Below, piece by piece: positions 913-60,342 of a stretch of 64,000 nt of DNA. How positions within the stretch are numbered: the stretch's first letter is position 1; every line of letters begins with the position of its first letter. The DNA comes from Acidobacteriota bacterium (GTDB taxonomy: Bacteria; Acidobacteriota; Thermoanaerobaculia; Multivoradales; UBA5704), in assembly GCA_046765915.1 (NCBI GenBank), contig JBKPTH010000003.1:63524-127523 (forward strand), written 5' to 3'. Position numbers and translations under genes: made by a program. The notes under the pieces are model-generated. The model had not been told where the DNA came from and did not search any database. It worked only from the letters and a program-made list of their open reading frames with translations.

Positions 913-1536
913 CTAATACAGGTCGTTGATGCCGTTGCGGTCGTCGGTCTCGATGGTGGCCGGGCCGTTGTTGCAGGCCGAGACCGACGGATACATGGTG
1001 GCGCCGCTGACGCTGCTGTGGCCGAGGCCCAGCAGGTGGCCGACCTCGTGCACCATGACGCCCTCGATGTAGAACTCCGTGCCGGAGCAGGTCTCGCCGA
1101 GCGAGGCCCAGTTCCAGGCGGTGTTGGTGACGATGTCGGCGTCGGTGATGCGGTAGGTGCCGTTGCCGCGGTTCTGGTAATAGCCGGTGAAGGTGGCCGC
1201 CAGGCAGTTGCCCGTGCAGGCGCCCACGGGATCGCGGAAGTTGAGCATCGGCCGGCCGTCGCCGAGGGTGAAGCCCGAGATCGAGCCCACCGAGGCGTTG
1301 AGGCGGGTGCCGGTGCCGGCGCCGTTCCAGGCGGAGCTGGAGGTGATGGCGTTGCGCGTGCGCGTGCGGCCGAAGTCGCCGTCGGCGATGCTGGACTGGC
1401 CGCGGTTGTCGACGATGACGGTCGGCGGGCTGTCCCAGGTGCGCCGCGGGCTGAGGAGGACGTAGGCCGAGAGGCTGCCCGCGAGCAGGCAGGCGAGGAC
1501 GATGATGACGGTCGCGAACGAAGCGATTCTCTTCAT
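913..1536 (-). CDS. Secreted zinc metalloprotease, metzincin/matrixin-like (HEVGHLLGLGHS).
   Basis: 207 aa with an N-terminal signal peptide (MKRIASFATVIIVLACLLAGSLSA). It carries the HExxHxxGxxH zincin motif plus a downstream Met-turn (ATMYP). RBS GGAGAGGAGACC. Paralog of 7686..8312. Confidence 0.85.
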   Translation of the reverse strand: MKRIASFATVIIVLACLLAGSLSAYVLLSPRRTWDSPPTVIVDNRGQSSIADGDFGRTRTRNAITSSSAWNGAGTGTRLNASVGSISGFTLGDGRPMLNFRDPVGACTGNCLAATFTGYYQNRGNGTYRITDADIVTNTAWNWASLGETCSGTEFYIEGVMVHEVGHLLGLGHSSVSGATMYPSVSACNNGPATIETDDRNGINDLY

Positions 1537-1559: not shown

Positions 1560-2126
1560 CTAGTTCTCGAGCACGGCGCGGCCGGCGCGGCGGGCCTCGT
1601 TGCGGATGGACGCCTTGAGCAGGTCGAGACGCATAGCCTTGACCGCAGCCATCGGCCGGCCGTCGCGCGTGATGACGCCGGCCCCCTCGTCGAGCGTCGG
1701 CACGGCGAGCTCGACGCCCGCCTTGTCACGGACGATCCGGTAGTGCCCCTGCTGATAGCCGGTGACCCGCGAGACGCCGTCCTTCTCCGGCTCGAGGTAG
1801 AGCAGGACGCGCTCGTTGGCGCGGAACTTCGGGAAGCCGTGGGCCTCCACCGTGAAGCCGTTGACCGTGCCGCCGAAGGTGCGCACGACGACGACCGACG
1901 GCGCCTCGCCGAGGATCTTCTCCTGCACCTGGACCATGGCCTCCGTGACGATGATCCGGCCGCTGGGCTCCCAGAAGGAGCTGACCTTGAGGATCTCCCC
2001 CTGCACCACGGCCGCCGAGCCGCGGATCAGCTCGCCCGGGGTCATTCTGAGGAACGTAGAGGCTCCCCCTGGAGTGGCCGCCGCCACGACGAGCAGCAGG
2101 ATGCCGATCGACACCAGACGCTTCAT
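1560..2126 (-). CDS. Secreted hypothetical protein, metzincin-associated partner (copy 1). Paralog of 7099..7659.
   Basis: Internal start MKRLVSIGILLLVVAAATPGGAST (signal peptide), preceded by GACAAGGAGGTCCGC-ATG. 188 aa. Shared motifs with 7099..7659: VQG..LKVSSFWE, VRTFGGTVNGFTVEAHGFPKF, VTGYQQG.YRI.RDKAG. It lies immediately upstream of the metzincin in an operon-like arrangement. No known domain recognised. Confidence 0.7.
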   Translation of the reverse strand: MKRLVSIGILLLVVAAATPGGASTFLRMTPGELIRGSAAVVQGEILKVSSFWEPSGRIIVTEAMVQVQEKILGEAPSVVVVRTFGGTVNGFTVEAHGFPKFRANERVLLYLEPEKDGVSRVTGYQQGHYRIVRDKAGVELAVPTLDEGAGVITRDGRPMAAVKAMRLDLLKASIRNEARRAGRAVLEN

Positions 2127-2327
2127 GCGGACCTCCTTGTCTTCCAGACGACCGCCACCAGCGGCGGTCGGATTGAACACCAGGACGTTGTGCCCCAGGA
2201 CACTGCGCGTGGGCCTCACTAGTATCGGTACTCGAACCCCTGCGAAAGGAGACAAAAGTCGATGAAGCGGAGCGGAGGAAACGAGGAGCGGGGCGGCCGT
2301 GGTGGCCGCCCCGGGTTCTGGGCCTGA

Positions 2328-3956
2328 CTAGATGCAGCCCGGCTGCTTGAAGCTGCCGATGCGGGTCTTGAAGTCGAAGCTGCCGTTGTTGGCGTAATAC
2401 TCGGTGGTGTACCAGAAGGTGCAGCCGTCCGACGGATCGACGCTCATCGACGAGTAGTCGCCCCAGCGGTTGCTCGAGCTCTGCTGCACGCCGGCGCCGG
2501 CCTGCAGGGTCACCTCGGAGCCCACGGTGCCGAGCGGATCGCCAGCCGCCCGCGTGACGTAGCGGATCGAGGGTTTGACCTGCCGGCTCGACACGCTGTA
2601 GCCGACGGCGATGTTGCCCTGCTTGTCCTGGGCGATGCTGCCCGTCCAGCGGCTGTCGCCGGTCGGAGAAATGGTGCCGCTCTGCTGAAGGGTCCAGCCG
2701 CTGCCGCTGTTGCGCAGCTCGGCCCAGCGGACGCCGGCGACGTTGTGGCCGTTGACGTCGACCGTGTGATTGATCAGCAGGCTCTGGTAGCTGGGGAAGT
2801 TGCGGTACATGGCGCGGTACATGGTGAACTGGCCGATGGGATCCAACCGCTCGCCGGGCGAGGGCTGGACGATGCAGCCGCGGCTGAAGTTGCACAGGTT
2901 GGCGTCGAACTCAGCCGTGTTGACCTGCGGCAGCGCGGTGAACGTCGAGCTGCTCGGGGTCGTCCAATTGACGGCGAAGTTGAACATCCGGTAGCCGTCC
3001 GGTCCGGCGCCGGTGCCCCAGGTCTCGTCGTCCCAGGACTGGATGAACGGATTGGGCGCGCCCGCGGGCGGCGCCGTGCCGCCGTCGAAGTGCGCCGGCT
3101 GCATGCTGAAGTAGCACTCGGTGCCGCAGGTCAGGGGGCCGAACTTGACCATCTGCGCCGAGAGGCCGCTGAGCATCCGGCTGCGCTCGAAGGCCACGGC
3201 GATGACGCCCTCGAAGCTGCTGGCGAACTGGTTGGCGGTGATGTAATAGCCGTCCGGCCAGACGCCCATCTTCGGGTAATCGTTGAATTTGCCCGGGCTG
3301 ACCACGAAGTCGTAGCGGTAGAACGAGCCGGCCGGATTGCCGCTGGTCGACACCGCGACGCACTGGTGGCCGTCGGGGCCGCTGACGGCGAACTGGCTGA
3401 TCACCCAGCGGTCCGCCGCGTCGTCGTAGAGCACCGTGGGATCACCGTTGTTGAAGGTCTCGCAATCGCCGCCGAAGCCGGCCCACAGGTTGTTGATCTT
3501 CACCGGCCCGAAGGTCCGGACGCCTGCCTTGTTGTAGACCGCGTAGATGAGGTTGATCGTCTGCACGATGTCGCTCGGGCCGACGTCGAGGTTGGTATCG
3601 GGGGGCACGACCCGGCCGCCGACGACGACCGCGTTGTCGTCGTCGCTCAGCCCTTCGAAGCTGGCGCTCGGCGTGGGCGTAGCGCCGATGATGGGACCGT
3701 TGGCCAGCGGATCCGGAAGAGCGTCGTTGCCATGGTGCCGCTGCGCGAGGTCCGGCACCCGGTTGACGATCTCCCGGTTGGGTTGCGTCGCCGCGGCCTT
3801 GAGCGGCAGGAGCGCCAGCTCGGTGAACGGCGGCGAAACGTCGTGCCGGATGGCCTTGGACACCTGAGGCCGCAGGTCCGGGAAGTCCCCGGCTCGCAGC
3901 ACGCAGGGCGCGAACAGGACCACCAGACACAGGATGGCGGGAAGCGTTCTTCTCAT
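2328..3956 (-). CDS. Large secreted hypothetical protein (542 aa), possibly beta-propeller-like.
   Basis: Start MRRTLPAILCLVVLFAPCVLRAG (signal peptide) with RBS AGGAGAAAA. The ORF-track entry 2328..4100 has a longer, implausible N-terminus. No confident family assignment. Confidence 0.7.
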   Translation of the reverse strand: MRRTLPAILCLVVLFAPCVLRAGDFPDLRPQVSKAIRHDVSPPFTELALLPLKAAATQPNREIVNRVPDLAQRHHGNDALPDPLANGPIIGATPTPSASFEGLSDDDNAVVVGGRVVPPDTNLDVGPSDIVQTINLIYAVYNKAGVRTFGPVKINNLWAGFGGDCETFNNGDPTVLYDDAADRWVISQFAVSGPDGHQCVAVSTSGNPAGSFYRYDFVVSPGKFNDYPKMGVWPDGYYITANQFASSFEGVIAVAFERSRMLSGLSAQMVKFGPLTCGTECYFSMQPAHFDGGTAPPAGAPNPFIQSWDDETWGTGAGPDGYRMFNFAVNWTTPSSSTFTALPQVNTAEFDANLCNFSRGCIVQPSPGERLDPIGQFTMYRAMYRNFPSYQSLLINHTVDVNGHNVAGVRWAELRNSGSGWTLQQSGTISPTGDSRWTGSIAQDKQGNIAVGYSVSSRQVKPSIRYVTRAAGDPLGTVGSEVTLQAGAGVQQSSSNRWGDYSSMSVDPSDGCTFWYTTEYYANNGSFDFKTRIGSFKQPGCI

Positions 3957-4108
3957 CAATTTTTCTCCTTGCCTCCGGGGGCGGTATGGCGAGAAACGCG
4001 GCACGGTCGTACCTCTGCCGTCCCGCAGAATCGCAGATGTGCGCTGCTCTCCCTCAGCCCACCATCCCCTGATCTGGCTCTCTTTTTCTTGGGGGCTCAA
4101 CTAGTAAG

Positions 4109-5131
4109 GTGCTCAAGGCTCGACATTGCGAGACAGATTTTGCGAGCTACAATGCCGCTATGACCGTGCCTGCCCTTCGGGGGCCGCTTCTGACGATTCT
4201 GCTGTCGCTGTTTCTCGCCGCGGCGCCCGCCGCCGGCTGCTCGATCTGCCGCTGCGGCGATCCCACCTTCAACGCCCTCGGCACGGACGTCTACAAGGAC
4301 GGCGCCTTCCGCGTCTTCCTCGACTGGGAGCGCTTCGACAAGGAGCAGGGGAGCGCCGGCGAGGAGATCCTCGAGATCGCCAAGCACGAAGGGCACGAGC
4401 ATGGCGCGGCGCGCGAAGCCGTGGTCGAGAATCGCTTCACGACGTCGCTCTCCTACAGCTTCGGCGAGCGGGCGATCGGCGTCGCCCGTCTGCCGTGGAG
4501 CTCCCGCCGCCTCAGCGAGGAAGGGGAAGGCGGCGCCAGCGAGACCACCCGGGACCTCGCCGATCCGGAGATCTATGCCCTGGTGCGGCTATGGTCCTCG
4601 AAGTTCGCGCCGGACCTCGGCCGGCGCGCCTGGCTCTCCGCCCTCGGCGGCGTCAAGACGGACTGGGGGAAGAACGATCTCGAGCAAGGCGGGGAGAGGC
4701 TCGACGAGCACCTGCAGGCCGGCACCGGCTCGACCGACTGGTTCGGCGGCCTCTCCGGGCTCTACCTGCTCGACGCGCGCTCGGCGCTGTTCTCGTCCGT
4801 GCAAGTCCGCAAGACAGGCGCGAACGACTTCGGTTACGAGTACGGCGACCTGACGCTGGCCAACCTCGGCTACGAGCACAAGTTCTCCCAGCTCGCCGAC
4901 GGCGCGCTGGAGCTCAACTATCGCGACGCCGGAAGGGACCGCATCGACGCCGCCGGCACCCTGGACCCGAACACCGGCGGCGCCGTGCTCTACGTGACGC
5001 CGCGCCTGATCTTCGATCTCGGCCGCGGGCTCGTCGGCCGGCTGGCGGTGCAGGTCCCCGTCTACCGCGACCTCAACGGCGAGCAGACCGAGAAGGCGGT
5101 GGCGAACGTGGGCCTGACGTATCTGTTCTGA
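4109..5131 (+). CDS. Outer-membrane beta-barrel protein (C-terminal ...GLTYLF); alternative start at 4160.
   Basis: The signal peptide begins at MTVPALRGPLLTILLSLFLAAAPAAG (ATG 4160). The mature N-terminus has CSICRCGDP. Alternating amphipathic strands and a terminal aromatic F are typical of OM beta-barrels. A 64-nt copy of the 3' end is present at 45964..46027. Confidence 0.7.
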   Translation: MLKARHCETDFASYNAAMTVPALRGPLLTILLSLFLAAAPAAGCSICRCGDPTFNALGTDVYKDGAFRVFLDWERFDKEQGSAGEEILEIAKHEGHEHGAAREAVVENRFTTSLSYSFGERAIGVARLPWSSRRLSEEGEGGASETTRDLADPEIYALVRLWSSKFAPDLGRRAWLSALGGVKTDWGKNDLEQGGERLDEHLQAGTGSTDWFGGLSGLYLLDARSALFSSVQVRKTGANDFGYEYGDLTLANLGYEHKFSQLADGALELNYRDAGRDRIDAAGTLDPNTGGAVLYVTPRLIFDLGRGLVGRLAVQVPVYRDLNGEQTEKAVANVGLTYLF

Positions 5132-5238
5132 GCTCGCTTGACTCGCGGGGAGTGACTGTTTACCATGCCCGCGGTTCGAAGCATCCTGGCGCGATGAAAA
5201 AGCTTTCACTACGCTCGTCTCTGATCTGACCGCTGACA

Positions 5239-5308
5239 CCCTCTCCCGCCCGGCGTTTCGGGCGGGATTTAACCATGGATCCTCGACTCGGGGAGACAAG
5301 GAGGTTGC
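5239..5308 (+). promoter_or_regulatory. Conserved 5' leader module with a GC hairpin (CCCGCCCG-gcgttt-CGGGCGGG, 5245..5266) followed by the GACAAGGAGGT RBS. Shared with 7025..7098.
   Basis: ~85% nucleotide identity with 7025..7150, extending into the first ~50 nt of both CDSs (MKRLICFGVIALVLSA vs MKRIVWLGVIALLLAA). The hairpin is retained via a compensatory wobble in copy B. Confidence 0.6.
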
Positions 5309-6901
5309 ATGAAGCGTCTCATCTGCTTCGGTGTGATCGCGTTGGTCCTGTCGGCGGTTCCGGGCTTCGCCGCCCCGGTAGCTCTCGAAGACATCTTCGC
5401 GGCGGCGCCGCAGGCCATGCCGGAGACCGTCGGCACGCCGCGGGATTCGGGCGCCCACGCCGCTGAGATGCGGGAGCTGCAGAAGCGGCTGGCCGCGAGC
5501 CAGGTCGGCCAGGCGTTGCGCCAGGAGATCGTCGTCTCGCTGAGCGGCGCCGAGCGCAAGCAGGTCGACGAGCCCAGCGACCGCAACGGCAAGTACCTGG
5601 TGGGCGTGGCCAAGTCGGCCGGCGTGACGGTCGACTTCTCGCCCGTGCGCGGTGACCGCGAGGTCAACCTGGCGGCCGGCGCCGCCCGCAGCAGCGCCAA
5701 GGGCGGCTTCGTGTGGACGGCCTCGGTGCACTCGCCGGGCGCCACGGCGTTGCGCGTGCATCTCACCGGCCTCGATCTGCCGGAGGGCAGCGAGCTCTAC
5801 GTCTACAACCGCGACGGCCAGGCCTTCGGCCCCTATACCAAGCGCGGTCCCCTTGGCGACGGCGACCTCTACACCAATACCGTCTTCGGCGACACGCTGA
5901 TGCTGCAGCTCCATCATCCCGAGGGCGCCGAGCGGGCTCCGTCGCCGCTGCGCATCGAGAGCGTCGGCGTCATGGGCAAGCGCTTCCTGGCGCCGCGCTA
6001 CGGCCCGAACGGCGCTTTCGACATCAACAACCTCGAAGCGCTCTCCAAGGCCAGCAACCTCTGCGCGACCAACGCCAACTGCGTGGTCAACGCGGCGTGC
6101 ACGTCGAGCGCCGCCGTCAACACGGCCAAGGACGCGGTGGCCAGCATCCTGTTCCAATCGGGAGCCAACTTCTACATCTGCACCGGCGGCCTGATCGCGG
6201 ACAACGTAACCACCTCGGTGATCCCCCTCTTCCTTACCGCCCATCACTGCATCAGCAGCAGCGGCGAGGCCTCCAGCCTGGAGACCTACTTCGACTACCA
6301 GACCACGTGCAGCAACCCCAACTGCACGCAGCCCTACAACAACACGGGCGAGACGGTGGGCGCCACCATCAAGGCCACCAACTCTTCCAGCGATTACTCG
6401 CTGGTGCAGCTCTCGTCGACGCCGGTGACGCCCGACGGCGTCGCCGCCTACCTCGGCTGGCTGAGCACGGCGGTGGCCAACACCAACAACTACGCGCTCT
6501 ACCGCATCAGCCATCCCAAGGGCTCGCCCCAGGCCTACACCGAGGGCGTGGTCGACACCAACAAGCCCACCTGCCGCTCCTTGCCGCGCGGCAGCTTCAT
6601 CTACAGCCGGGACACCCTGGGTGCGACGGAAGGCGGCAGCAGCGGCTCGCCGGTGGTCAACAGCTCCGGCCAGATCGTCGGCCAGCTCTACGGCGCCTGC
6701 GGCACCAACCTCAACGACGTCTGCGACGCGGCGAACAACGCCACGGTCGACGGCGCCTTCGCGGCCAGCTATCCCGCCCTGGCGCCCTTCCTGAGCCCGG
6801 GCGGCGGCGGCTGCGGCGCGGCGGGCTCGAGCTGCACCAGCAACAGCCAGTGCTGCTCCAACAGTTGCAAGGGCAAGCCGGGATCGCAGACCTGCAAGTG
6901 A
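5309..6901 (+). CDS. Secreted S1-family (trypsin/lysyl-endopeptidase-like) serine protease with a C-terminal Cys-rich tail.
   Basis: 530 aa with a signal peptide. Catalytic His context LTAHHC and Ser context GGSSGSPVV. C-terminal CGAAGSSCTSNSQCCSNSCKGKPGSQTCK (6 Cys in 30 aa). Strong RBS GACAAGGAGGT. Confidence 0.85.
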   Translation: MKRLICFGVIALVLSAVPGFAAPVALEDIFAAAPQAMPETVGTPRDSGAHAAEMRELQKRLAASQVGQALRQEIVVSLSGAERKQVDEPSDRNGKYLVGVAKSAGVTVDFSPVRGDREVNLAAGAARSSAKGGFVWTASVHSPGATALRVHLTGLDLPEGSELYVYNRDGQAFGPYTKRGPLGDGDLYTNTVFGDTLMLQLHHPEGAERAPSPLRIESVGVMGKRFLAPRYGPNGAFDINNLEALSKASNLCATNANCVVNAACTSSAAVNTAKDAVASILFQSGANFYICTGGLIADNVTTSVIPLFLTAHHCISSSGEASSLETYFDYQTTCSNPNCTQPYNNTGETVGATIKATNSSSDYSLVQLSSTPVTPDGVAAYLGWLSTAVANTNNYALYRISHPKGSPQAYTEGVVDTNKPTCRSLPRGSFIYSRDTLGATEGGSSGSPVVNSSGQIVGQLYGACGTNLNDVCDAANNATVDGAFAASYPALAPFLSPGGGGCGAAGSSCTSNSQCCSNSCKGKPGSQTCK

Positions 6902-6929
6902 GCTGAGCATTTCCTTGCTGCAAGAGAAA

Positions 6930-6956
6930 GGGGCCTGCGGGCCCCTTTTCCTTTTT
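6930..6956 (+). terminator. Rho-independent terminator (GGGGCC-tgcg-GGCCCC + TTTTCCTTTTT).
   Basis: Perfect 6-bp GC stem followed by a T-tract, 30 nt after the protease stop. Confidence 0.8.
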
Positions 6957-7024
6957 CGCGTTTCCCAGTGACACGGATGAGCACTTCCGCGCACCTTTAA
7001 GATTGGTGCTCCTTGAACAGGCCT

Positions 7025-7098
7025 ACCCTCTCCCGTCCGGCCGTTCGGGCGGGATGAACCCATGAATCCCCGCTAGCGGGGAGACAAGGAGGTTTTTC
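7025..7098 (+). promoter_or_regulatory. Second copy of the conserved leader module (hairpin 7031..7052, CCCGTCCG-gccgtt-CGGGCGGG) plus the GACAAGGAGGT RBS.
   Basis: See 5239..5308. The identity continues into the signal-peptide coding region of 7099..7659. Confidence 0.6.
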
Positions 7099-7659
7099 AT
7101 GAAGCGTATCGTCTGGTTGGGTGTGATCGCGTTGCTGCTGGCGGCGATCCCGGCGGCGGCTTCGACCTTCATCGCGCTGAGCCACGCCGAGCTCGTGGCC
7201 GGGTCGGACGCGATCGTCCAGGGGAGGGTGCTGAAGGTGAGCTCGTTCTGGGAGAAGACCGGCCGCGTCATCGTCAGCGAGGCGATGGTGCAGGTCGAGG
7301 AGGTGGTCAAGGGCGCGGCACCGAGCGTGGTGATCGTGCGCACCTTCGGCGGCACCGTCAACGGCTTCACGGTGGAGGCCCACGGCTTTCCGAAGTTCGC
7401 CGTCAACGATCACGTCCTGCTCTATCTGCACGGCGCCGAGGGCACGGCCGAGGTGACCGGCTATCAGCAGGGCCAGTACCGCATCGCCCGCGACAAGGCG
7501 GGCAACGCGATGGCGGTGCCGTCCGTGGACGGCGGCGCCTTCCTGGTCGGCCGCGACGGCCGGCCGGCTCCCGGGGCCAAGGCCATGCGGCTCGAAACCC
7601 TCAAGAACTTGATCCGCGCCGAGGCCGCGAAGCCTGAAACCGGCCGCATCGCCAACTAG
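7099..7659 (+). CDS. Secreted hypothetical protein, metzincin-associated partner (copy 2).
   Basis: 186 aa with a signal peptide. Paralog of 1560..2126 (~60% identity by eye). Located directly upstream of metzincin 7686..8312. Confidence 0.75.
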   Translation: MKRIVWLGVIALLLAAIPAAASTFIALSHAELVAGSDAIVQGRVLKVSSFWEKTGRVIVSEAMVQVEEVVKGAAPSVVIVRTFGGTVNGFTVEAHGFPKFAVNDHVLLYLHGAEGTAEVTGYQQGQYRIARDKAGNAMAVPSVDGGAFLVGRDGRPAPGAKAMRLETLKNLIRAEAAKPETGRIAN

Positions 7660-7685: not shown

Positions 7686-8312
7686 ATGATGAATCGCAAG
7701 TCTTCCGTCACGGTCTTCATCCTTCTCGCCGTGCTCCTGGTGAGCTCGGCTTCGGCCTACGTGCTGCTCAGCCCGCGGCGCACCTGGGACGGCGTCGTCA
7801 ACATCACCGTCGACAACCGCGGCAACTCCAGCATCACCGACGTCGACGGCGGTGCCACCGCGGTGGTCACCGCCATCACCGCCAACGCCGCCTGGAACGG
7901 CGCCGGCACCGGCACTCGCGTCTCCGCCCAGAAGGGGTCGGTCGCGGGCTTCCAACTCGGCGACCGCATCGTCATGCTCAACTTCCAGGATCCCGTCCAT
8001 GCCTGCAACGGCTCCTGCCTGGCGGCCACCTTCACCGGCTACTACGAGCCGCGTGGCGACGGCACGAACCGCATCTACGACGCCGACATCGTGACCAACA
8101 AGAGGAATCCCCTCACGTCGACGCTCGAGCCGGACGGCTGCTCCGGCGAGTACTATGTCGAGGGCATCATGGTGCACGAGGTGGGGCACGTGCTGGGCCT
8201 CGCCCACACCACCGTCACCGGCGCCACGATGTACCCCTCGGTCTCGGCCTGCAACAACAATCCCGCCAGCACCGAGGCGGACGACCGCGCCGGCATCAAC
8301 GACCTGTACTAG
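7686..8312 (+). CDS. Secreted zinc metalloprotease, metzincin-like (HEVGHVLGLAHT). Paralog of 913..1536.
   Basis: 208 aa with a signal peptide, the HExxHxxGxxH motif and a conserved ATMYPSVSACNN...DDRAGINDLY C-terminus. RBS GGAGAGGTGAGA. Confidence 0.85.
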   Translation: MMNRKSSVTVFILLAVLLVSSASAYVLLSPRRTWDGVVNITVDNRGNSSITDVDGGATAVVTAITANAAWNGAGTGTRVSAQKGSVAGFQLGDRIVMLNFQDPVHACNGSCLAATFTGYYEPRGDGTNRIYDADIVTNKRNPLTSTLEPDGCSGEYYVEGIMVHEVGHVLGLAHTTVTGATMYPSVSACNNNPASTEADDRAGINDLY

Positions 8313-8337
8313 CCGCAAGCCGTATCGCGAAGATCGG

Positions 8338-8369
8338 GACCCTCCTGGCGAGGGTCCCTTTTCTTTTCT
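8338..8369 (+). terminator. Rho-independent terminator (GGGACCCTC-ctggc-GAGGGTCCC + TTTTCTTTTCT).
   Basis: 9-bp stem followed by a T-tract, downstream of metzincin copy 2. Confidence 0.8.
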
Positions 8370-10427: not shown

Positions 10428-10824
10428 GCGGTCGAACGCGATCCGGCCCAGTTGGGGCAGGACCTCTACAGGCTGGAGGAGTGACAACGGCCGAAAGACA
10501 TGGAGGTGACGGACATCACACTGGCCGGTTCGTCTTCCGGCCGCGAAGCGACAAGCCGACGGGCGGCTGCGCGTTCCGGAAAGCGGCCAGGTATTCCGTC
10601 TGGATGGAGAGCGGCGGCTCGGCGAGCTGCGCAGCAAGGCCTGAGAAATGTTTTTCGGCTACCGTAGTCGGTGGCGCCTTCCCGCCGCATCAGCTTCAGC
10701 TTGAGCGCCATTCCAGACGCAGGGCGCGTCTCAGAAGTTGCTCTCTGGTTGCCGCGCTTTCGGCCAGGGCCGCCATCACAACTGATAGTACGCCGGCTTG
10801 GGAGGGTGAGCCGGTAAGAGGCTT

Positions 10825-11070
10825 CAACCCGTCAGTTGGACTCTCCAACCCGCCGGTTGCGCTCTCCAACTCGCCAGTTGAGATCTCCAACCCGTCGGTT
10901 GCGCTCTCCAACCGGCCAGTTGGACTCTCCAACCCGCCGGTTGGGCTCTCCAACTCGGCGGTTGCGCTCTCCAACCCGCCGGTTGGGCTCTCCAATCCGC
11001 CGGTTGGACGGCTCAACTCGCCGGTTGGAAGCCCCAACTACTCAGTTGAAGAGTCCAACTCGCGAGTTGC
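10825..11070. repeat. 21-bp tandem repeat array, ~11.5 copies (consensus CCGCCGGTTG[CG]GCTCTCCAAC).
   Basis: Direct reading: ccgtcagttggactctccaac / ccgccggttgcgctctccaac / tcgccagttgagatctccaac ... with progressive degeneration toward the 3' end. Period 21 = 7 codons. It encodes SPTRRLR heptads on the + strand and LESPTGG heptads on the - strand. Confidence 0.9.
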
Positions 11071-12004
11071 CCGGCCTCATGATTCCCGCCTTGTACTGAA
11101 TCGCCTCCGCGAGATGCGCGGCGCGGATGGCATCGCTCCCTGCGAGGTCGGCGACGGTCCGGGCGACTTTGAGGGCGCCCGTCACCGCACGGACCGAAAG
11201 TCCGAGCTTCTCGACGGCCTGGTCGCGGAGGACGCTACCGGCAGGGTCGAGGCGGCAATAGTGTTGGCTCGCGGCTGAGGCGAGGGAGGCATTGAGCCGG
11301 CCGCAACGCTCCTGCTGGATCCTCCGGGCAGCGGCCACCCGGCGGGCCACGGTCTCGGAACACTCTCCGGCGCTGGATCTCAACTCCTTGAGGCTGACGT
11401 GCGGCACCGGCACGACGAGGTCGAGCCGGTCGAGCATCGCTCCGGAGATCGGGCTGAGGTAACGGGCGACCGCGCGCGGCGAGCATCGGCACGGTTCCTC
11501 ATGACGCCAGCCGCAAGGGCAGGCGTTCATCGCGGCGATCAGGAGGAACCGCGCCGGCAAGGTTCGGCTCCGCCGCAGCAAGGGCACCGTCACGGTCCCG
11601 CGCTCCAGCGGCCCGCGCAGCCCGTCGAGCACCTTCCGCCGGAAAAGCGGCAGCTCGTCGAGAAAGAGCGTCCCGTAATGGGCGAGACTGACCTCGCCCG
11701 GCTTCCCTCTGCCGCCGATCATGCCGGTCGGAGTCGTGGCCGGCGGCGGCCTGCGGAACGGCCGGCGGGGATTCGGCGGCGCGCCGTTCCGGCTCAGGGC
11801 GTAGATCCCGGCCACCTCGGCGGCCTCTTCGTCCGTCAACGGCGGCAGCAAGGAGGGCACCCTCTCCGCCAGCATGGTCTTGCCGGCGCCGGGCGGCCCC
11901 ACCATCAACAGGTGATGACCCCCTGCCGCCGCCACCTCCAACGCCCGCTTGGCGGTTTCCTGTCCGCGCACCTCGGCAAGATCCGGTAGCAGGCTCCGCT
12001 CCAC
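11042..12004 (-). CDS. YifB/ComM-family Mg-chelatase-like AAA+ ATPase lacking the N-terminal Lon-like domain (GTG start).
   Basis: Collinear with the E. coli YifB AAA+ region onward: VRGQETAKRALEVAAAGGHHLLMVGPPGAGKTMLAERVPSLLPPL, SLAHYGTLFLDELPLF, ARFLLIAAMN, LSVRAVTGALKVARTVADL, AIQYKA. The ~180-aa N-terminal domain is absent. The tail overlaps the first units of the 21-bp repeat. Confidence 0.8.
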   Translation of the reverse strand: MERSLLPDLAEVRGQETAKRALEVAAAGGHHLLMVGPPGAGKTMLAERVPSLLPPLTDEEAAEVAGIYALSRNGAPPNPRRPFRRPPPATTPTGMIGGRGKPGEVSLAHYGTLFLDELPLFRRKVLDGLRGPLERGTVTVPLLRRSRTLPARFLLIAAMNACPCGWRHEEPCRCSPRAVARYLSPISGAMLDRLDLVVPVPHVSLKELRSSAGECSETVARRVAAARRIQQERCGRLNASLASAASQHYCRLDPAGSVLRDQAVEKLGLSVRAVTGALKVARTVADLAGSDAIRAAHLAEAIQYKAGIMRPGNSRVGLFN

Positions 12005-22541: not shown

Positions 22542-23912
22542 ATGTCCAGCGCGCGGCCACGTCTCCTGCTCCCCTCCCTGCTGGTCGGCGGCAGCTTGCT
22601 CGCCTTCGCCAATCTCCAACGCCCGGAGAAAGCGGGGGCGCAAATCTCCCCCGCGGACGCCGTGCAGCCGGTGAGCGCCCATGCCAGGCAGCCGGAGCAG
22701 GACGCCCTGCAAGCGATCGCCAGGGGGCGCCAGACCTTCCGCCACGACACCTTCGGCGACGAGGCCTTCTGGGGCGGCACCCTACATCTCGACGAGGCGA
22801 TCGCGGGTGCTGCCAACGGCGGGGTCGGTCCGGGTCTCTCGCCGCGCAACGCCCTCGCACTCGGCCTGAAGGTGGACATCGCGGCGTTGCCGAGGAGCGT
22901 CCGTCGCCAGCTCGCGGCGGGGACCGTGAACCTCGACGATCCCGCGGTCACGCTCGTGCTCCTGCAGAGCAACGCGGTGGTCGGCGTCAGGGGGTTCTTC
23001 TCCGGCGGCACGCTCGCCTCGGTCGGTATCCAGTGCGCGCTGTGCCACTCGACCGTGGACGATTCCTTCGCGCCGGGGATCGGCGAACGGCGCGACGGCT
23101 GGGCGAACCGCGATCTCAATGTTGGAGCCATCGTGGCGTTGGCGCCGGACCTCTCCGTCCTCGCCTCCCTGCTCGGTGTGTCCCAGGATACCGTCCGGCA
23201 GGTTCTACGCTCGTGGGGCCCCGGCAAGTTCGACGCCGAGCTCATCCTCGACGGCAAGGCCTTCCAGGACCCGCCCGCGAACACCAAGTCCGCGGCCACG
23301 CTCATCCCGCCCGCCTTCGGGTTGGCGGGGGTCAACCTCCACACTTGGACGGGTTGGGGCTCGGTGACGCACTGGAATGCCTTCGTGTCGAACTTAGAGA
23401 TGCACGGCAAGGGAACGTTCTTCGACCCGCGGCTGGAGGACGCCGCGCAGTTCCCGATCGCGGCGGCCAACGACTTCGGCAACGTTCGCAATACGCCCGA
23501 CCTCATCACCGGCAAGCTTGCGGACCTGCACTTCTATCAGCTCGCCATCCGGGCGCCTGCGCCGCCGGCAAGCAGCTTCGATGCCGCGGCGGCGGCGCGG
23601 GGTCGCGCCCTGTTCACCGGCAAGGCGATGTGCGCGACCTGCCACGTTCCGCCACTGTTCACCGAGCCCGGCTGGAACATGCACCTGCCCTCGGAGATCG
23701 GGATCGACAGTTTCCAGGCCGATCGGGCGCCGGACCACCGCTACCGGACATCACCGCTGAAGGGCCTATGGACGCATACCAAGGGCGGCTTCTACCACGA
23801 CGGCAGGTTCGCCACCCTGCTCGACGTCGTCAATCACTACAACAGCTTCAAGGGTCTCGGTCTGACGGCACAGGAGAAGTCGGACCTCGTCGAGTACCTG
23901 AGGTCCTTATGA
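22542..23912 (+). CDS. Secreted di-haem c-type cytochrome (two CxxCH motifs), possibly di-haem oxidoreductase (DUF1111-like).
   Basis: Signal peptide. Haem-binding motifs CALCHS and CATCHV ~215 aa apart. 456 aa. Tandem paralog of the next gene. Confidence 0.7.
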   Translation: MSSARPRLLLPSLLVGGSLLAFANLQRPEKAGAQISPADAVQPVSAHARQPEQDALQAIARGRQTFRHDTFGDEAFWGGTLHLDEAIAGAANGGVGPGLSPRNALALGLKVDIAALPRSVRRQLAAGTVNLDDPAVTLVLLQSNAVVGVRGFFSGGTLASVGIQCALCHSTVDDSFAPGIGERRDGWANRDLNVGAIVALAPDLSVLASLLGVSQDTVRQVLRSWGPGKFDAELILDGKAFQDPPANTKSAATLIPPAFGLAGVNLHTWTGWGSVTHWNAFVSNLEMHGKGTFFDPRLEDAAQFPIAAANDFGNVRNTPDLITGKLADLHFYQLAIRAPAPPASSFDAAAAARGRALFTGKAMCATCHVPPLFTEPGWNMHLPSEIGIDSFQADRAPDHRYRTSPLKGLWTHTKGGFYHDGRFATLLDVVNHYNSFKGLGLTAQEKSDLVEYLRSL

Positions 23913-23926
23913 GGCGAGGAGGGAAG

Positions 23927-25273
23927 ATGATGCGATGGAAATTGTTTGGGACGTTGCTCGCCGCCGCCCTTCTGGTCATCGCCTGTTTGCCGGCCATGAA
24001 GGGGGTCCCGAAGAACCCGGCCGTGGAAGCTGAAAAGACGCGGGCCGGGCACGATGCCAGGATCGACGCCTACGCCGCCAAGCTGCTGCGTGAGGGGCGC
24101 GAGATCTTCCGCTACGACAGCTTCGGCAGCGAGGACTTCTGGGGCGGGCAGCTACGCCTGCACGAGGCGATCCTCGGTGAAAAGCAAGGCGGCGTCGGGC
24201 CTGGCCTGACCCCCAAGCAGGCGCTGAAGCTCGGCCTCAAGGTCGACGCCGGCCAGCTTCCCGAGATCCTCGCCAGGGCGATCTCCGAGGGCTCGGTGAG
24301 CCTCGACAATCCCGAGACCACGGTGGCGCTGTTGCGGGCTCACTCGGTCGTCGGCGTCAAGGCGATCCTGCGTGACGAGAAGGTGGTCAGCATCGGCATC
24401 ACCTGCGCCATCTGTCACTCGACGGTCGATGACTCGATCACGGCCGGCATCGGGGCCCGCCTCGACGGCTGGCCGAATCGCGACCTCGACATCGGGCAGG
24501 TGGCGGCGCTGGCGCCGAACCTGAAGCCCTTCGCCGATCTCCTCGGCATCAGCGAGGACAAGGTACGGCAGGTGTTTCGCAGTTGGGGGCCGGGCAAGTA
24601 CGACGCCGAGCTCAACCAGGACGGCAAGGCGATGCGGCCGGACGGCAAGTCGGCGGCGACCGTGCTGCCGGCCGCCTTCGGTCTTGCCGGCGTCAACCTG
24701 CACACCTACACCGGCTGGGGCTCGGTGACGCACTGGAACGCCTATGTCGCCAACACCCAGATGCACGGCAAGGGCACGTTCTTCGATCCTCGGCTGAACG
24801 ACCGCCGGCAGTTCCCGGTGGCGGCCAAGGCCGGTCACGGCAACATACGCAGCAACCCCGACATGATCACGTCGAAGCTCGCGGCGCTGCACTACTACCA
24901 GCTTTCGATCCCGGCACCGGAGCCGCCCAAGGATTCGTTCGACGCGGCAGCGGCAGCGCGGGGCAAGCTCGTCTTCGAGGGCAAGGGGCAGTGCGCCACC
25001 TGCCACGTGCCGCCGCTCTTCGTCGAGCCTGGCTGGCCCATGCACACTCCCGAGGAGCTGGGAATCGACGATTTCCAGGCGAGCCGCTCGCCCGACCGCC
25101 GCTATCGCACGACGCCGCTCCGCGGTCTCTTCGTCCGGGCCAAAGGCGGCTTCTACCACGACGGCAGGTTCGCGACGCTGGACGACGTCGTGAACCATTA
25201 CGACCGTCACCGCAAGCTGCGGCTTGCACCGGAGGAGAAGAAGGATCTGGTAGAGTACCTCAAGTCGCTGTGA
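23927..25273 (+). CDS. Secreted di-haem c-type cytochrome, tandem paralog.
   Basis: RBS GAGGAGGGAAG. Motifs CAICHS and CATCHV. ~60% identity to the upstream copy. Confidence 0.7.
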   Translation: MMRWKLFGTLLAAALLVIACLPAMKGVPKNPAVEAEKTRAGHDARIDAYAAKLLREGREIFRYDSFGSEDFWGGQLRLHEAILGEKQGGVGPGLTPKQALKLGLKVDAGQLPEILARAISEGSVSLDNPETTVALLRAHSVVGVKAILRDEKVVSIGITCAICHSTVDDSITAGIGARLDGWPNRDLDIGQVAALAPNLKPFADLLGISEDKVRQVFRSWGPGKYDAELNQDGKAMRPDGKSAATVLPAAFGLAGVNLHTYTGWGSVTHWNAYVANTQMHGKGTFFDPRLNDRRQFPVAAKAGHGNIRSNPDMITSKLAALHYYQLSIPAPEPPKDSFDAAAAARGKLVFEGKGQCATCHVPPLFVEPGWPMHTPEELGIDDFQASRSPDRRYRTTPLRGLFVRAKGGFYHDGRFATLDDVVNHYDRHRKLRLAPEEKKDLVEYLKSL

Positions 25274-45963: not shown

Positions 45964-46027
45964 GACGACCTCAACGGAGACCAGGAGGAGCGGCCGATGG
46001 CCGACGTGGGCCTGACCTATCTGTTCT
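45964..46027 (+). pseudogene. Orphan 64-nt fragment matching the 3' end of OMP gene 4109..5131 (..DLNG..VGLTYLF*).
   Basis: cgacctcaacggagaccaggaggagcggccgatggccgacgtgggcctgacctatctgttctga vs cgacctcaacggcgagcagaccgagaaggcggtggcgaacgtgggcctgacgtatctgttctga (~80% identity). Confidence 0.6.
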
Positions 46028-46204
46028 GATCCCTGTCAACTACGGGCCAAACAGGTCAACCAGGTTCAATACGCAGGCTGTCCGATGCCCTACCTTGGCT
46101 CGGAAGGGAGAAAATGTTGCATTCCAACTGCTATGACAGATTGAAACCTTCAATCCACGAGGGCGTAACTAGAGTCCTGATGACTCAGTTGGAAGGGGTG
46201 CTTC

Positions 46205-54141: not shown

Positions 54142-55047
54142 TCACTGATTCTCCCGAAGGACTTCGAACTTCGTGGTGAGCGTTTCGGTTCCAGCCGTGA
54201 CCGCCAGGTCGTAGAGTCCCGTGGTAAGGCGCTGCGCCGGGATCTTCAGGACGAGGGCCGTGCCCCAATCCAGCCGTTTCGGCGTCAGGCCTTTCTTTTC
54301 CCATACGGTCCCCTCGGTCTCGCTCTTCACGGCCGCGTCGAACGATCTATAATCCTCCAATCCTTCTAGATCGACTTGGATCTCGACGAGTTCCGCGTTC
54401 GCCGGAATGGCGGATTTCTGGACGTCTTCGGCTCCGCGCAGGGTAGCCAGGGAGAGCACGAAGACGGTCTTGACGGGCTCGTGCCGAGAAGCCTGCTCCT
54501 CCTGTTGGGGCGTCGTCGGCTCGGGTGGCGGCTGCGGAACTGTCGGCTCAGGTGGCGGCTGCGGAACCGGCTGCTTGGGCGGCGGCTGCAGAACCGGCTG
54601 CTTGGGTGGCGGCTGCGGAGGGGGATTCGGCTGGAGGTTGTCTCGCCTCGGCAGGCCGAGTACCAACAGGAGAACTGCGGCGGCGGCCAGAGCGGCCCAA
54701 CGACTCGTCGTGAGCCGCGGAAACAGGGCGGTACGGCGGCGGAAAGGCACCACGGAAACCGCCGTCCGCTGGGCTTCCCGGGCGGCCGTGTTGAGGGAGC
54801 GCGCAAGGGCAAGGCGTCCCTCCCCTGCGGGAGATGAGGCGAGACGGCGGCGCACCTGCTCCTTCTCCGCTGCGGTAAGCTCGCCCCGATCGTAGGCGGC
54901 CAGGAGGTCAGCCTCCAGCGCCTCGCAGAGGTCGAAGAGCTCGTCGTCCTCGATCAGCCCCTGTTCGAGGCGGTCCATTTCTTCTTCCGGGAGCTCGCCG
55001 AGGAGATAGCTCCTCAGAAGCTCGGTGTTTTGTAGGTCTCCATCCAT
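54142..55047 (-). CDS. Anti-sigma factor (N-terminal anti-sigma domain, TM helix, Pro-rich linker, C-terminal periplasmic domain).
   Basis: MDGDLQNTELLRSYLLGELPEEEMDRLEQ... (anti-sigma N-terminal motif). TM WAALAAAAVLLLVLGL. PPQPPPKQPVLQPPPKQPVPQPPPEP linker. RBS GGAGGAGG. Confidence 0.75.
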   Translation of the reverse strand: MDGDLQNTELLRSYLLGELPEEEMDRLEQGLIEDDELFDLCEALEADLLAAYDRGELTAAEKEQVRRRLASSPAGEGRLALARSLNTAAREAQRTAVSVVPFRRRTALFPRLTTSRWAALAAAAVLLLVLGLPRRDNLQPNPPPQPPPKQPVLQPPPKQPVPQPPPEPTVPQPPPEPTTPQQEEQASRHEPVKTVFVLSLATLRGAEDVQKSAIPANAELVEIQVDLEGLEDYRSFDAAVKSETEGTVWEKKGLTPKRLDWGTALVLKIPAQRLTTGLYDLAVTAGTETLTTKFEVLRENQ

Positions 55048-60205: not shown

Positions 60206-60342
60206 TCCACTTCCTGGCACAAGCCTTGCTCAGGAATCAAACCGCCAGAGGCGATGACAACAAAGAATCGCCTACCGTGTGTGCCTCTGGCCTTTTCTCG
60301 ACTTCAACCGGCAAGACCGGTTTCAGCATAGGAGGAACGGTC

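Follow-up and report, generated by a model that had tools for sequence, protein, structure and literature searches.

A conserved two-hairpin 5' leader shared by an S1 protease gene and a matrixin partner gene in the Thermoanaerobaculia looks like an uncatalogued RNA-level control element

The 64,000-nucleotide stretch of DNA analysed here, referred to as the window, comes from a soil bacterium which the names of its homologues place in the Thermoanaerobaculia, phylum Acidobacteriota, and it carries three copies of a 5' untranslated region (5' UTR) module, the leader, in front of genes for secreted proteases and their partners. Copy A (5237..5308, plus strand) precedes gene A, which encodes a trypsin-like S1 protease (5309..6901, plus; Pfam Trypsin_2), and copy B (7024..7098, plus) precedes partner gene B, which encodes a protein of 186 aa without a Pfam family (7099..7659, plus) and is directly followed by an M10 matrixin gene (7686..8312, plus). 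Copy C (2127..2176, minus), a diverged variant of the same architecture, precedes a paralogue of the partner gene (1560..2126, minus; 188 aa, 61% identical to partner gene B) and, downstream of it, another M10 matrixin gene (913..1536, minus). The S1 protease unit is closed by an intrinsic terminator with a 10-bp stem and a T-run (6926..6949, plus), which separates it from partner gene B's own promoter region (6960-7023). Judging from the comparisons described below, the leader seems to control this protease system at the RNA level, as an element so far uncatalogued, and not to be a local duplication.

The 5' ends of gene A and partner gene B are alike. By blastn, 5238..5363 and 7025..7153 share 82.3% identity in an alignment of 130 columns that contains 3 gap openings (E 6e-32), a repeat search of the window returned two ungapped blocks between the copies, each of 83% identity, and a 30-nt core pattern was present at two places in the window, where shuffles gave an expectation of 0. 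An earlier reading of this DNA from its letters (the sequence-only reading) had described ~120 nt of ~85% identity ending at ~17 codons; the repeat itself was recovered, whereas the identity is 82% by blastn and the similarity runs slightly further, to 5363/7153, i.e. codon 18. It includes the first 18 codons of the S1 protease gene, which encode the Sec signal peptide MKRLICFGVIALVLSAVP (5309..5363, plus), homologous to that of partner B, MKRIVWLGVIALLLAAIP (7099..7153, plus). Past the signal peptide, i.e. beyond residue 18, BLASTP found nothing shared between the two proteins, as had been stated. At the other end the similarity begins at 5237/7024 and the sequence further upstream differs between the copies; the promoter, which had been counted as part of the shared unit, therefore has to be left out of it, as copies A and B have different promoters.

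The leader is ~72-78 nt long and is joined to the homologous signal-peptide coding segment. It consists, in this order, of an 8-bp GC-rich hairpin (HP1), a linker GAACC..RAUCC, a 6-bp hairpin (HP2), the 5' arm of which resembles an anti-Shine-Dalgarno sequence and the 3' arm of which abuts the ribosome-binding site, and a perfect 8-nt Shine-Dalgarno (SD) sequence, AAGGAGGU. In copy A, which has a fold energy z of -3.0 and also contains a pyrimidine tract CCCUCU, HP1 pairs 5245-5252 with 5259-5266 around the loop GCGUUU and is followed by the linker AUUUAACCAUGGA (5267-5279), HP2 (5280-5285 with 5289-5294) and the ribosome-binding site (5298-5305). The corresponding elements of copy B are HP1 at 7032-7039 with 7046-7053, which contains a U·G wobble (7036/7049), the linker AUGAACCCAUGAA (7054-7066), HP2 (7067-7072 with 7077-7082) and the ribosome-binding site (7086-7093). 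On the minus strand, copy C has HP1 at 2149-2156 with 2163-2170, a marginal HP2 of 3-4 bp (2139-2149) and its ribosome-binding site at 2131-2138. The 8-bp hairpins of all three leaders, including the copy B wobble, were thus found where the sequence-only reading had placed them, and its view that the first partner gene (start 2126) has the same architecture, with the hairpin followed by GACAAGGAGGT and ATGAAGCG, was borne out; the second hairpin, adjoining the ribosome-binding site of copy A as well as that of copy B, had escaped it.

The relatives comprised 46 partner loci of species-representative genomes and 80 metagenomic S1-protease loci; 976 kb of sequence was searched with R1, a covariance model for the leader that was derived from 7 sequences. 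With filters off, R1 found copy A (91.5 bits, E 2.6e-21), copy B (93.9 bits, E 6.5e-22), copy C (20.3 bits, E 0.004) and no others in the 64-kb window. Among relatives it matched the start of 25 S1 orthologues (63-81% identical, ~38-76 bits) and ~17 Thermoanaerobaculia partner genes (30-94 bits), and gave weak matches to most of the remaining partner genes, copy C of the window included, and to three genes for outer-membrane proteins (OMPs). No match was obtained among S1 homologues of ≤58% identity within the 80 S1 loci, and there were no others across the 976 kb searched. Leaders orthologous to copy B are present in loci L001, L002 and L004. The whole window gave no Rfam 15 match at gathering thresholds, and at E up to 5 the sole match to a leader in 1900-7400 was a chance Yfr1 hit of 20 bits against a threshold of 38; the literature searched contained no description of the leader.

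The hairpins are conserved as structures. In a model-fitted alignment of 18 divergent leaders, 96% of cells were paired, compared with 42-62% in slid controls, and 12 of the 14 base pairs showed double changes, a result equalled by 0 of 500 shuffles; the S1 set, also model-fitted, was 95.7% paired, with many C-G/U-G/U-A transitions. Structure-blind MAFFT alignment of 28 close leaders gave 93.6% paired cells (40-67% when slid), and the same procedure applied to the copy-C hairpin in 20 orthologous C-type partner leaders gave 92.6% (20-70% when slid), with double changes in 5 of 9 pairs and a score reached by 0 of 500 shuffles. Alignment-free folding of 85 leaders returned mean z values of -1.1 to -1.3, compared with +0.1 to -0.5 in control segments. 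Conservation starts abruptly near -80, with pairwise identities of 20-26% upstream and 31-57% inside the leader, and it includes unpaired nucleotides: within the close set the AACC of the linker reaches 90% conservation or more, and the C-type loop (A/C)UGGU is conserved together with its inner stem. The loop of HP1 is GCCGUU, GCGUUU or GACAAUC and that of HP2 has 3-4 nt. Absence of further copies and of covariation had been named as what would count against a shared element; instead, the leader recurs in relatives and its hairpins carry compensatory and wobble changes.

Among paired cells, G·U exceeded A·C by 74 to 19, which leads us to read the element as sense-strand RNA. This bears on the alternative that the inverted repeats are DNA operators, at which a transcription factor binding palindromes past the promoter would repress the protease genes. 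HP1 is indeed a perfect dyad in many copies, lies just past the predicted starts, a frequent position for repressors, and has a strongly conserved stem sequence in the close set. However, operators conserve sequence, whereas the divergent leaders change the stem sequence completely yet keep the pairing; DNA symmetry would make G·U and A·C equally frequent, not different by a factor of about four; and loop lengths range from 3 to 17 nt. We consider an operator role unlikely.

Several additional features of the leader were considered and rejected. The minimum free energy fold of copy A contains an anti-SD closing helix (CCCUCU with GGAGG), which was paired in 71-75% of cells against 51-64% when slid and in which covariation is impossible because the SD is invariant. 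An SD-sequestering riboswitch or RNA thermometer was not supported either, as the SD is as accessible as in shuffles and the anti-SD helix is unsupported. A pairing, checked by eye, between the linker and the SD spacer (AACC with GGUU) shows no covariation, since leaders with a GGUC spacer keep GAAACC, and an upstream open reading frame from the linker ATG would be out of frame with the main ATG and is unconserved (CAG, for example, in L001 and L002). The signal-peptide codons are conserved to the same degree as the mature protein, and an RNA-level constraint on them was discarded, the fraction of identical codons among identical residues being 0.67, compared with 0.77 for conserved motifs of the mature protein; what is conserved in the signal peptide is its amino-acid sequence, without extra constraint on its codons.

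Three promoter classes precede the same leader; all transcription starts given here are motif predictions. The first, TTGAC(C)-17-TA(C/G)(C/T/A)(A/C)T, recurs with diverged spacers at one position, ~145-170 nt ahead of the ATG, in 10 S1 loci, that of the window among them. In the window it is the sigma-70-like TTGACT-17-TACCAT of the S1 gene (5138..5166, plus), found by consensus scan outside the shared module, with a predicted start at ~5173, ~64 nt ahead of the module. The second is a GCAC-C-TT(G/T)A-TA block on other S1 genes and on window-type partner genes, including the one behind copy B, for which the start is predicted at ~7010. The third consists of canonical sigma-54 sites, TGGCA[CT]-N5-TTGC, in relatives: 9 of the 20 strict matches in the 976 kb sit 56-93 nt upstream of leader-bearing genes, and a relaxed search found such sites at 11 leader-bearing genes (8 partner, 3 S1), where the -12 element precedes the ATG by 75-93 nt. 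With starts placed 12 nt past the -12 GC, these 11 genes have their predicted starts within -3 to +10 nt of the position at which the R1 match begins, HP1 follows the predicted 5' end at a distance of 3-16 nt and the module makes up the whole predicted 5' UTR, of 63-81 nt. No sigma-54 motif (TGGCAC-N5-TTGC, GG/GC 10 nt apart) was found upstream of the three window copies. As the leader keeps its place behind three promoter types, a role after transcription is indicated. An extracytoplasmic function (ECF)-type promoter with GAACC as its -35 element was rejected, since its -10 would sit in the covarying HP2 and is unconserved. Separately, the window holds a strict sigma-54 -24/-12 match, TGGCACAAGCCTTGC, at 60215..60229 (plus), and sigma-54-type sites at L074:1488-1502, which is 44 nt ahead of an S1 gene, L041:7347-7361 and L042:1278-1292 precede S1-type or other genes without the shared leader; this pattern suggests that sigma-54 widely controls the protease system, whether or not the leader is present.

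The position of HP1 relative to these promoters also bears on whether it could be a transcription attenuator or the terminator of the upstream gene. Its GC-rich stem of 8-9 bp would suit such a function, as would the AUUUAA that follows it in copy A, but copy B and most orthologues have no U-tract after HP1. The stem is followed by AUGAACC or AUUUAACC. Moreover, a terminator scan that listed 6926-6949 and a further intrinsic terminator at 8336-8358, both with clear T-runs, omitted HP1 and HP2; HP1 lies downstream of the promoter blocks, away from the upstream stop codon; and an alternative anti-terminator pairing was not found. We therefore regard this explanation as very unlikely.

The copies A and B lie 1.8 kb apart on the same strand, and the close relatives L001 and L002 have no S1 gene between the OMP and partner genes, both of which could be taken to mean that the repeat is a neutral by-product of recent local duplication or gene conversion between neighbouring genes. 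Against this, the same leader and signal peptide occur on S1 genes at unlinked loci in >20 metagenomic contigs, the S1 module of the window is closer to that of S1_L004 (85% identical) than to the partner module of its own genome (74%), and the S1 unit has its own promoter and terminator, with edges that do not coincide with the repeat. Local duplication thus seems extremely improbable. For most of the S1 genes with the leader, neither a partner gene nor an M10 gene lies within 3 kb, and the nearest neighbours of a module almost always belong to the same gene family, so that clusters follow family rather than genome. The element is accordingly not specific to the island around these genes, for which the sequence-only reading had proposed it, and the sharing is old and maintained by selection, given that the S1 loci are mostly unlinked to partner and matrixin genes and that modules cluster by family.

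The order of events at the locus can be partly read from relatives. L001 and L002, with partner proteins 95% and 90% identical to that of the window, carry the OMP, partner and matrixin genes without an intervening S1 gene, and in both the window and L004 the complete S1 unit (promoter, leader, gene and terminator) separates the OMP gene from the partner gene. On this comparison, copy B together with 6960-7023 is the ancestral upstream region of the partner gene, and the S1 unit is an arrival that brought along both a promoter-like site (5138-5166) and a terminator (6926-6949) of its own. Insertion mediated by the repeat was rejected, because the unit is equipped with a separate promoter and terminator and does not begin or end at the repeat. 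The presence/absence polymorphism of the S1 unit can be seen by comparing window 5132..7023 with L001:2957-3107 and L002:2488-2731; in L040 and L053 an S1 gene lies directly upstream of the partner gene. Similarly, a gene for a secreted protein of 542 aa, family unassigned (2328..3956, minus), is present in the window, L004 and L028 and absent in L001 and L002.

Signal peptides of S1 proteases are plainly homologous to that of the partner, as seen in L051 (MKRIVWLGVCALLLAAIPG) and the window partner (MKRIVWLGVIALLLAAIPA). S1 orthologues from L037, L073, L074 and L077 (65-70% identical) have an unrelated leader and signal peptide, and S1 homologues of ≤52% identity have unrelated 5' ends and signal peptides. 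The modular 5' shuffling that had been suggested is therefore upheld in an evolutionary sense, since S1 orthologues of 65-70% identity carry either this 5' end or an unrelated one, but it does not include the promoter. Throughout the partner family the architecture of hairpin, GACAAGGAGG and ATGAAGCG is retained. The leader is common by descent to two unrelated Thermoanaerobaculia families, one S1 clade and the TIMP-like partner of the matrixin. Because this architecture spans the whole partner family but just one S1 clade, that clade probably captured leader and signal peptide from a partner-type gene, the direction and timing of the capture being inferred.

The partner protein belongs to no Pfam or NCBIfam family, and its gene is always directly upstream of the matrixin gene. 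An AlphaFold model of the protein, based on 14 homologues (pLDDT 78.7), makes it a candidate prokaryotic TIMP-like partner of the matrixin, with a predicted TIMP-like fold, and four residues around its predicted signal-peptidase site (A21, S22, T23, F24) do not vary. Listeria has been reported to possess a metzincin/TIMP-like pair (PMC8235301).

That the leader is a common post-transcriptional element, as the sequence-only reading had put forward, is the best reading of the data, as the leader recurs with both hairpins conserved. A possible mechanism is that of a cis-acting 5'-UTR cassette which stabilises the mRNA or sets the context of ribosome binding, to which we give an even chance of being correct. 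The leader would act in cis on its mRNA, with HP1 as a 5'-proximal stem-loop that may shield the transcript from 5'-end-dependent decay and HP2 keeping the ribosome-binding site AAGGAGGU in a fixed, insulated context, so that protease and inhibitor/matrixin mRNAs would reach equally high and coordinated output irrespective of the promoter in use; a shared factor may dock at the conserved linker.

Several observations weigh against this mechanism. In the 28 close leaders strict covariation was weak, with 36 of 500 shuffles reaching the observed score, because the stems are nearly invariant in sequence, and the strongest covariation comes from the model-fitted alignment of 18 divergent leaders. 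The probability that the SD is unpaired was 0.32, compared with 0.27 in controls with shuffled upstream sequence (p 0.13), i.e. no difference. The start sites derive from motif predictions, and in the window the distance between HP1 and the predicted 5' end would be ~72 nt for copy A and ~22 nt for copy B, so that 5'-terminal protection here would need RNA processing. Finally, the AACC of the linker and the AUGGU of the C-type loop are conserved though a simple stabiliser would have no need of them, which hints at a trans-acting partner.

An alternative possibility is that the leader serves chiefly to bind a trans-acting regulator common to both genes, such as a CsrA/RsmE-type RNA-binding protein, a small RNA or a small ligand, through which the protease and inhibitor mRNAs would be jointly switched in their translation or decay. 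The conserved unpaired nucleotides (linker AACC and C-type loop) are in line with this idea, as is the presence of one leader on both the protease gene and the putative inhibitor operon. CsrA/RsmE proteins bind leaders such as that of Pseudomonas hcnA, with the consensus (A/U)CANGGANG(U/A); such leaders are expected to carry two or more GGA motifs, preferably within hairpin loops, one of which overlaps the SD. The sequence ACAAGGAGGU, which overlaps the SD in nearly all leader copies, fits this consensus, and about half of the copies have a second GGA (CAUGGAUC) upstream in the linker. Nevertheless, the motif match is mostly explained by the SD alone, the upstream GGA is unconserved (GAA, GAC or GUA in many copies), no GGA lies within a hairpin loop, no SD-sequestering alternative fold could be detected and there is no Rfam riboswitch match. 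Searches for CsrA, Hfq and RpoN by tblastn in the 976 kb found none, which is uninformative for a sample of that size. We regard a regulator platform as possible but somewhat doubtful; it is compatible with the cis-acting cassette, and the two are not exclusive. An extended version, in which the leader would be a new class of riboregulator whose two hairpins present GAACC..RAUCC, tying the protease and TIMP-like inhibitor/matrixin mRNAs to one trans factor, and would form with the signal peptide a portable expression-secretion cassette that moved between unrelated Thermoanaerobaculia genes, is offered tentatively, as an idea that we doubt rather more.

The closest functional analogues of the leader would be the ompA and aprE leaders, and the closest evolutionary ones the Mycoplasma and Borrelia cassettes. 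The E. coli ompA leader, of ~133 nt with two hairpins, was reportedly characterised as a 5'-UTR stabiliser by Emory, Bouvet and Belasco in 1992, and the B. subtilis aprE leader has a stabiliser stem-loop and belongs to the gene of a secreted protease. A stabiliser of the ompA type sits within a few nucleotides of the mRNA 5' end and prolongs mRNA half-life. As in these cases, we found a two-hairpin 5' UTR with a strong ribosome-binding site on genes for exported proteins, with HP1 near the predicted 5' end in the sigma-54-driven copies and with the type of promoter immaterial. Unlike them, the leader shows no sequence relationship to either, the likeness being known from sequence and predicted structure, the predicted 5' ends in the window lie 22-72 nt upstream of HP1, unpaired nucleotides are conserved, and two unrelated families share both leader and signal peptide. 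In Mycoplasma (vsp/vlp) and Borrelia (upstream homology regions), families of surface proteins have conserved 5' cassettes of promoter, 5' UTR and signal peptide, which are near-identical within a genome and maintained by recombination for antigenic or phase variation. Here, too, the 5' UTR and signal-peptide region are homologous ahead of differing mature proteins, but the copies are 82% identical, cluster by gene family, exclude the promoter and belong to two gene families that are stable single-copy orthologue groups; a concerted-evolution cassette of the vsp/vlp type was rejected, as copies within the genome are 74% identical, against 85% to S1_L004, and their promoters differ. Dual stem-loop RNAs targeted by ANTAR proteins resemble the leader in having two tandem stem-loops at the ribosome-binding region in a high-GC organism, and require that both loops be hexaloops in which the first base is A and the fourth is G (10.1101/660928). 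The leader was rejected as an ANTAR target, since HP2 loops have 3-4 nt, HP1 loops start with G and there is no Rfam match.

Other features of the window were recorded along the way. The likely OMP gene upstream of the S1 unit (4160..5131, plus) has its ATG 6 nt past a sigma-70-like TTGCGA-16-TACAAT (4126..4162 region), without an SD, which suggests a leaderless mRNA or a misplaced start; its orthologues in L001, L033 and L015 have a hairpin-plus-GAGGAGG leader, a weak match to R1, and the mature N-terminus contains a CSICRCGD cysteine motif. The final 64 nt of this gene including the stop codon (5068..5131) have a second copy, 81% identical, ~41 kb away at 45966..46029, and the similarity suggests a second OMP paralogue there. 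At the C-terminus of the S1 protease (6805..6901), all orthologues examined have a conserved six-cysteine, knottin-like tail, C..SC.S.SQCCS..CKGKPG.QTCK. Elsewhere, in 10789..11082 a 21-nt unit, which on translation would give a 7-residue repeat, is present 14 times in tandem within a long open reading frame, 54487..54619 is a GC-rich tandem 27-nt repeat of ~5 units, and 22724..25204 contains two tandem paralogous genes ~1365 nt apart, 71-86% identical in blocks.

The Thermoanaerobaculia are abundant in soils, and to our knowledge almost nothing is known of how they control gene expression. The leader is a well-delimited, conserved and uncatalogued cis-element on genes of extracellular proteolysis, the S1 protease on the one hand and the matrixin with its TIMP-like partner on the other, and as such it offers a concrete handle on post-transcriptional control in the Acidobacteriota and a marker for locating the remaining members of the regulon. 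It also represents a natural case in which an unrelated gene appears to have captured a 5' UTR together with a signal peptide, with selection then keeping both, and the leader and signal peptide could serve as an expression-secretion cassette.

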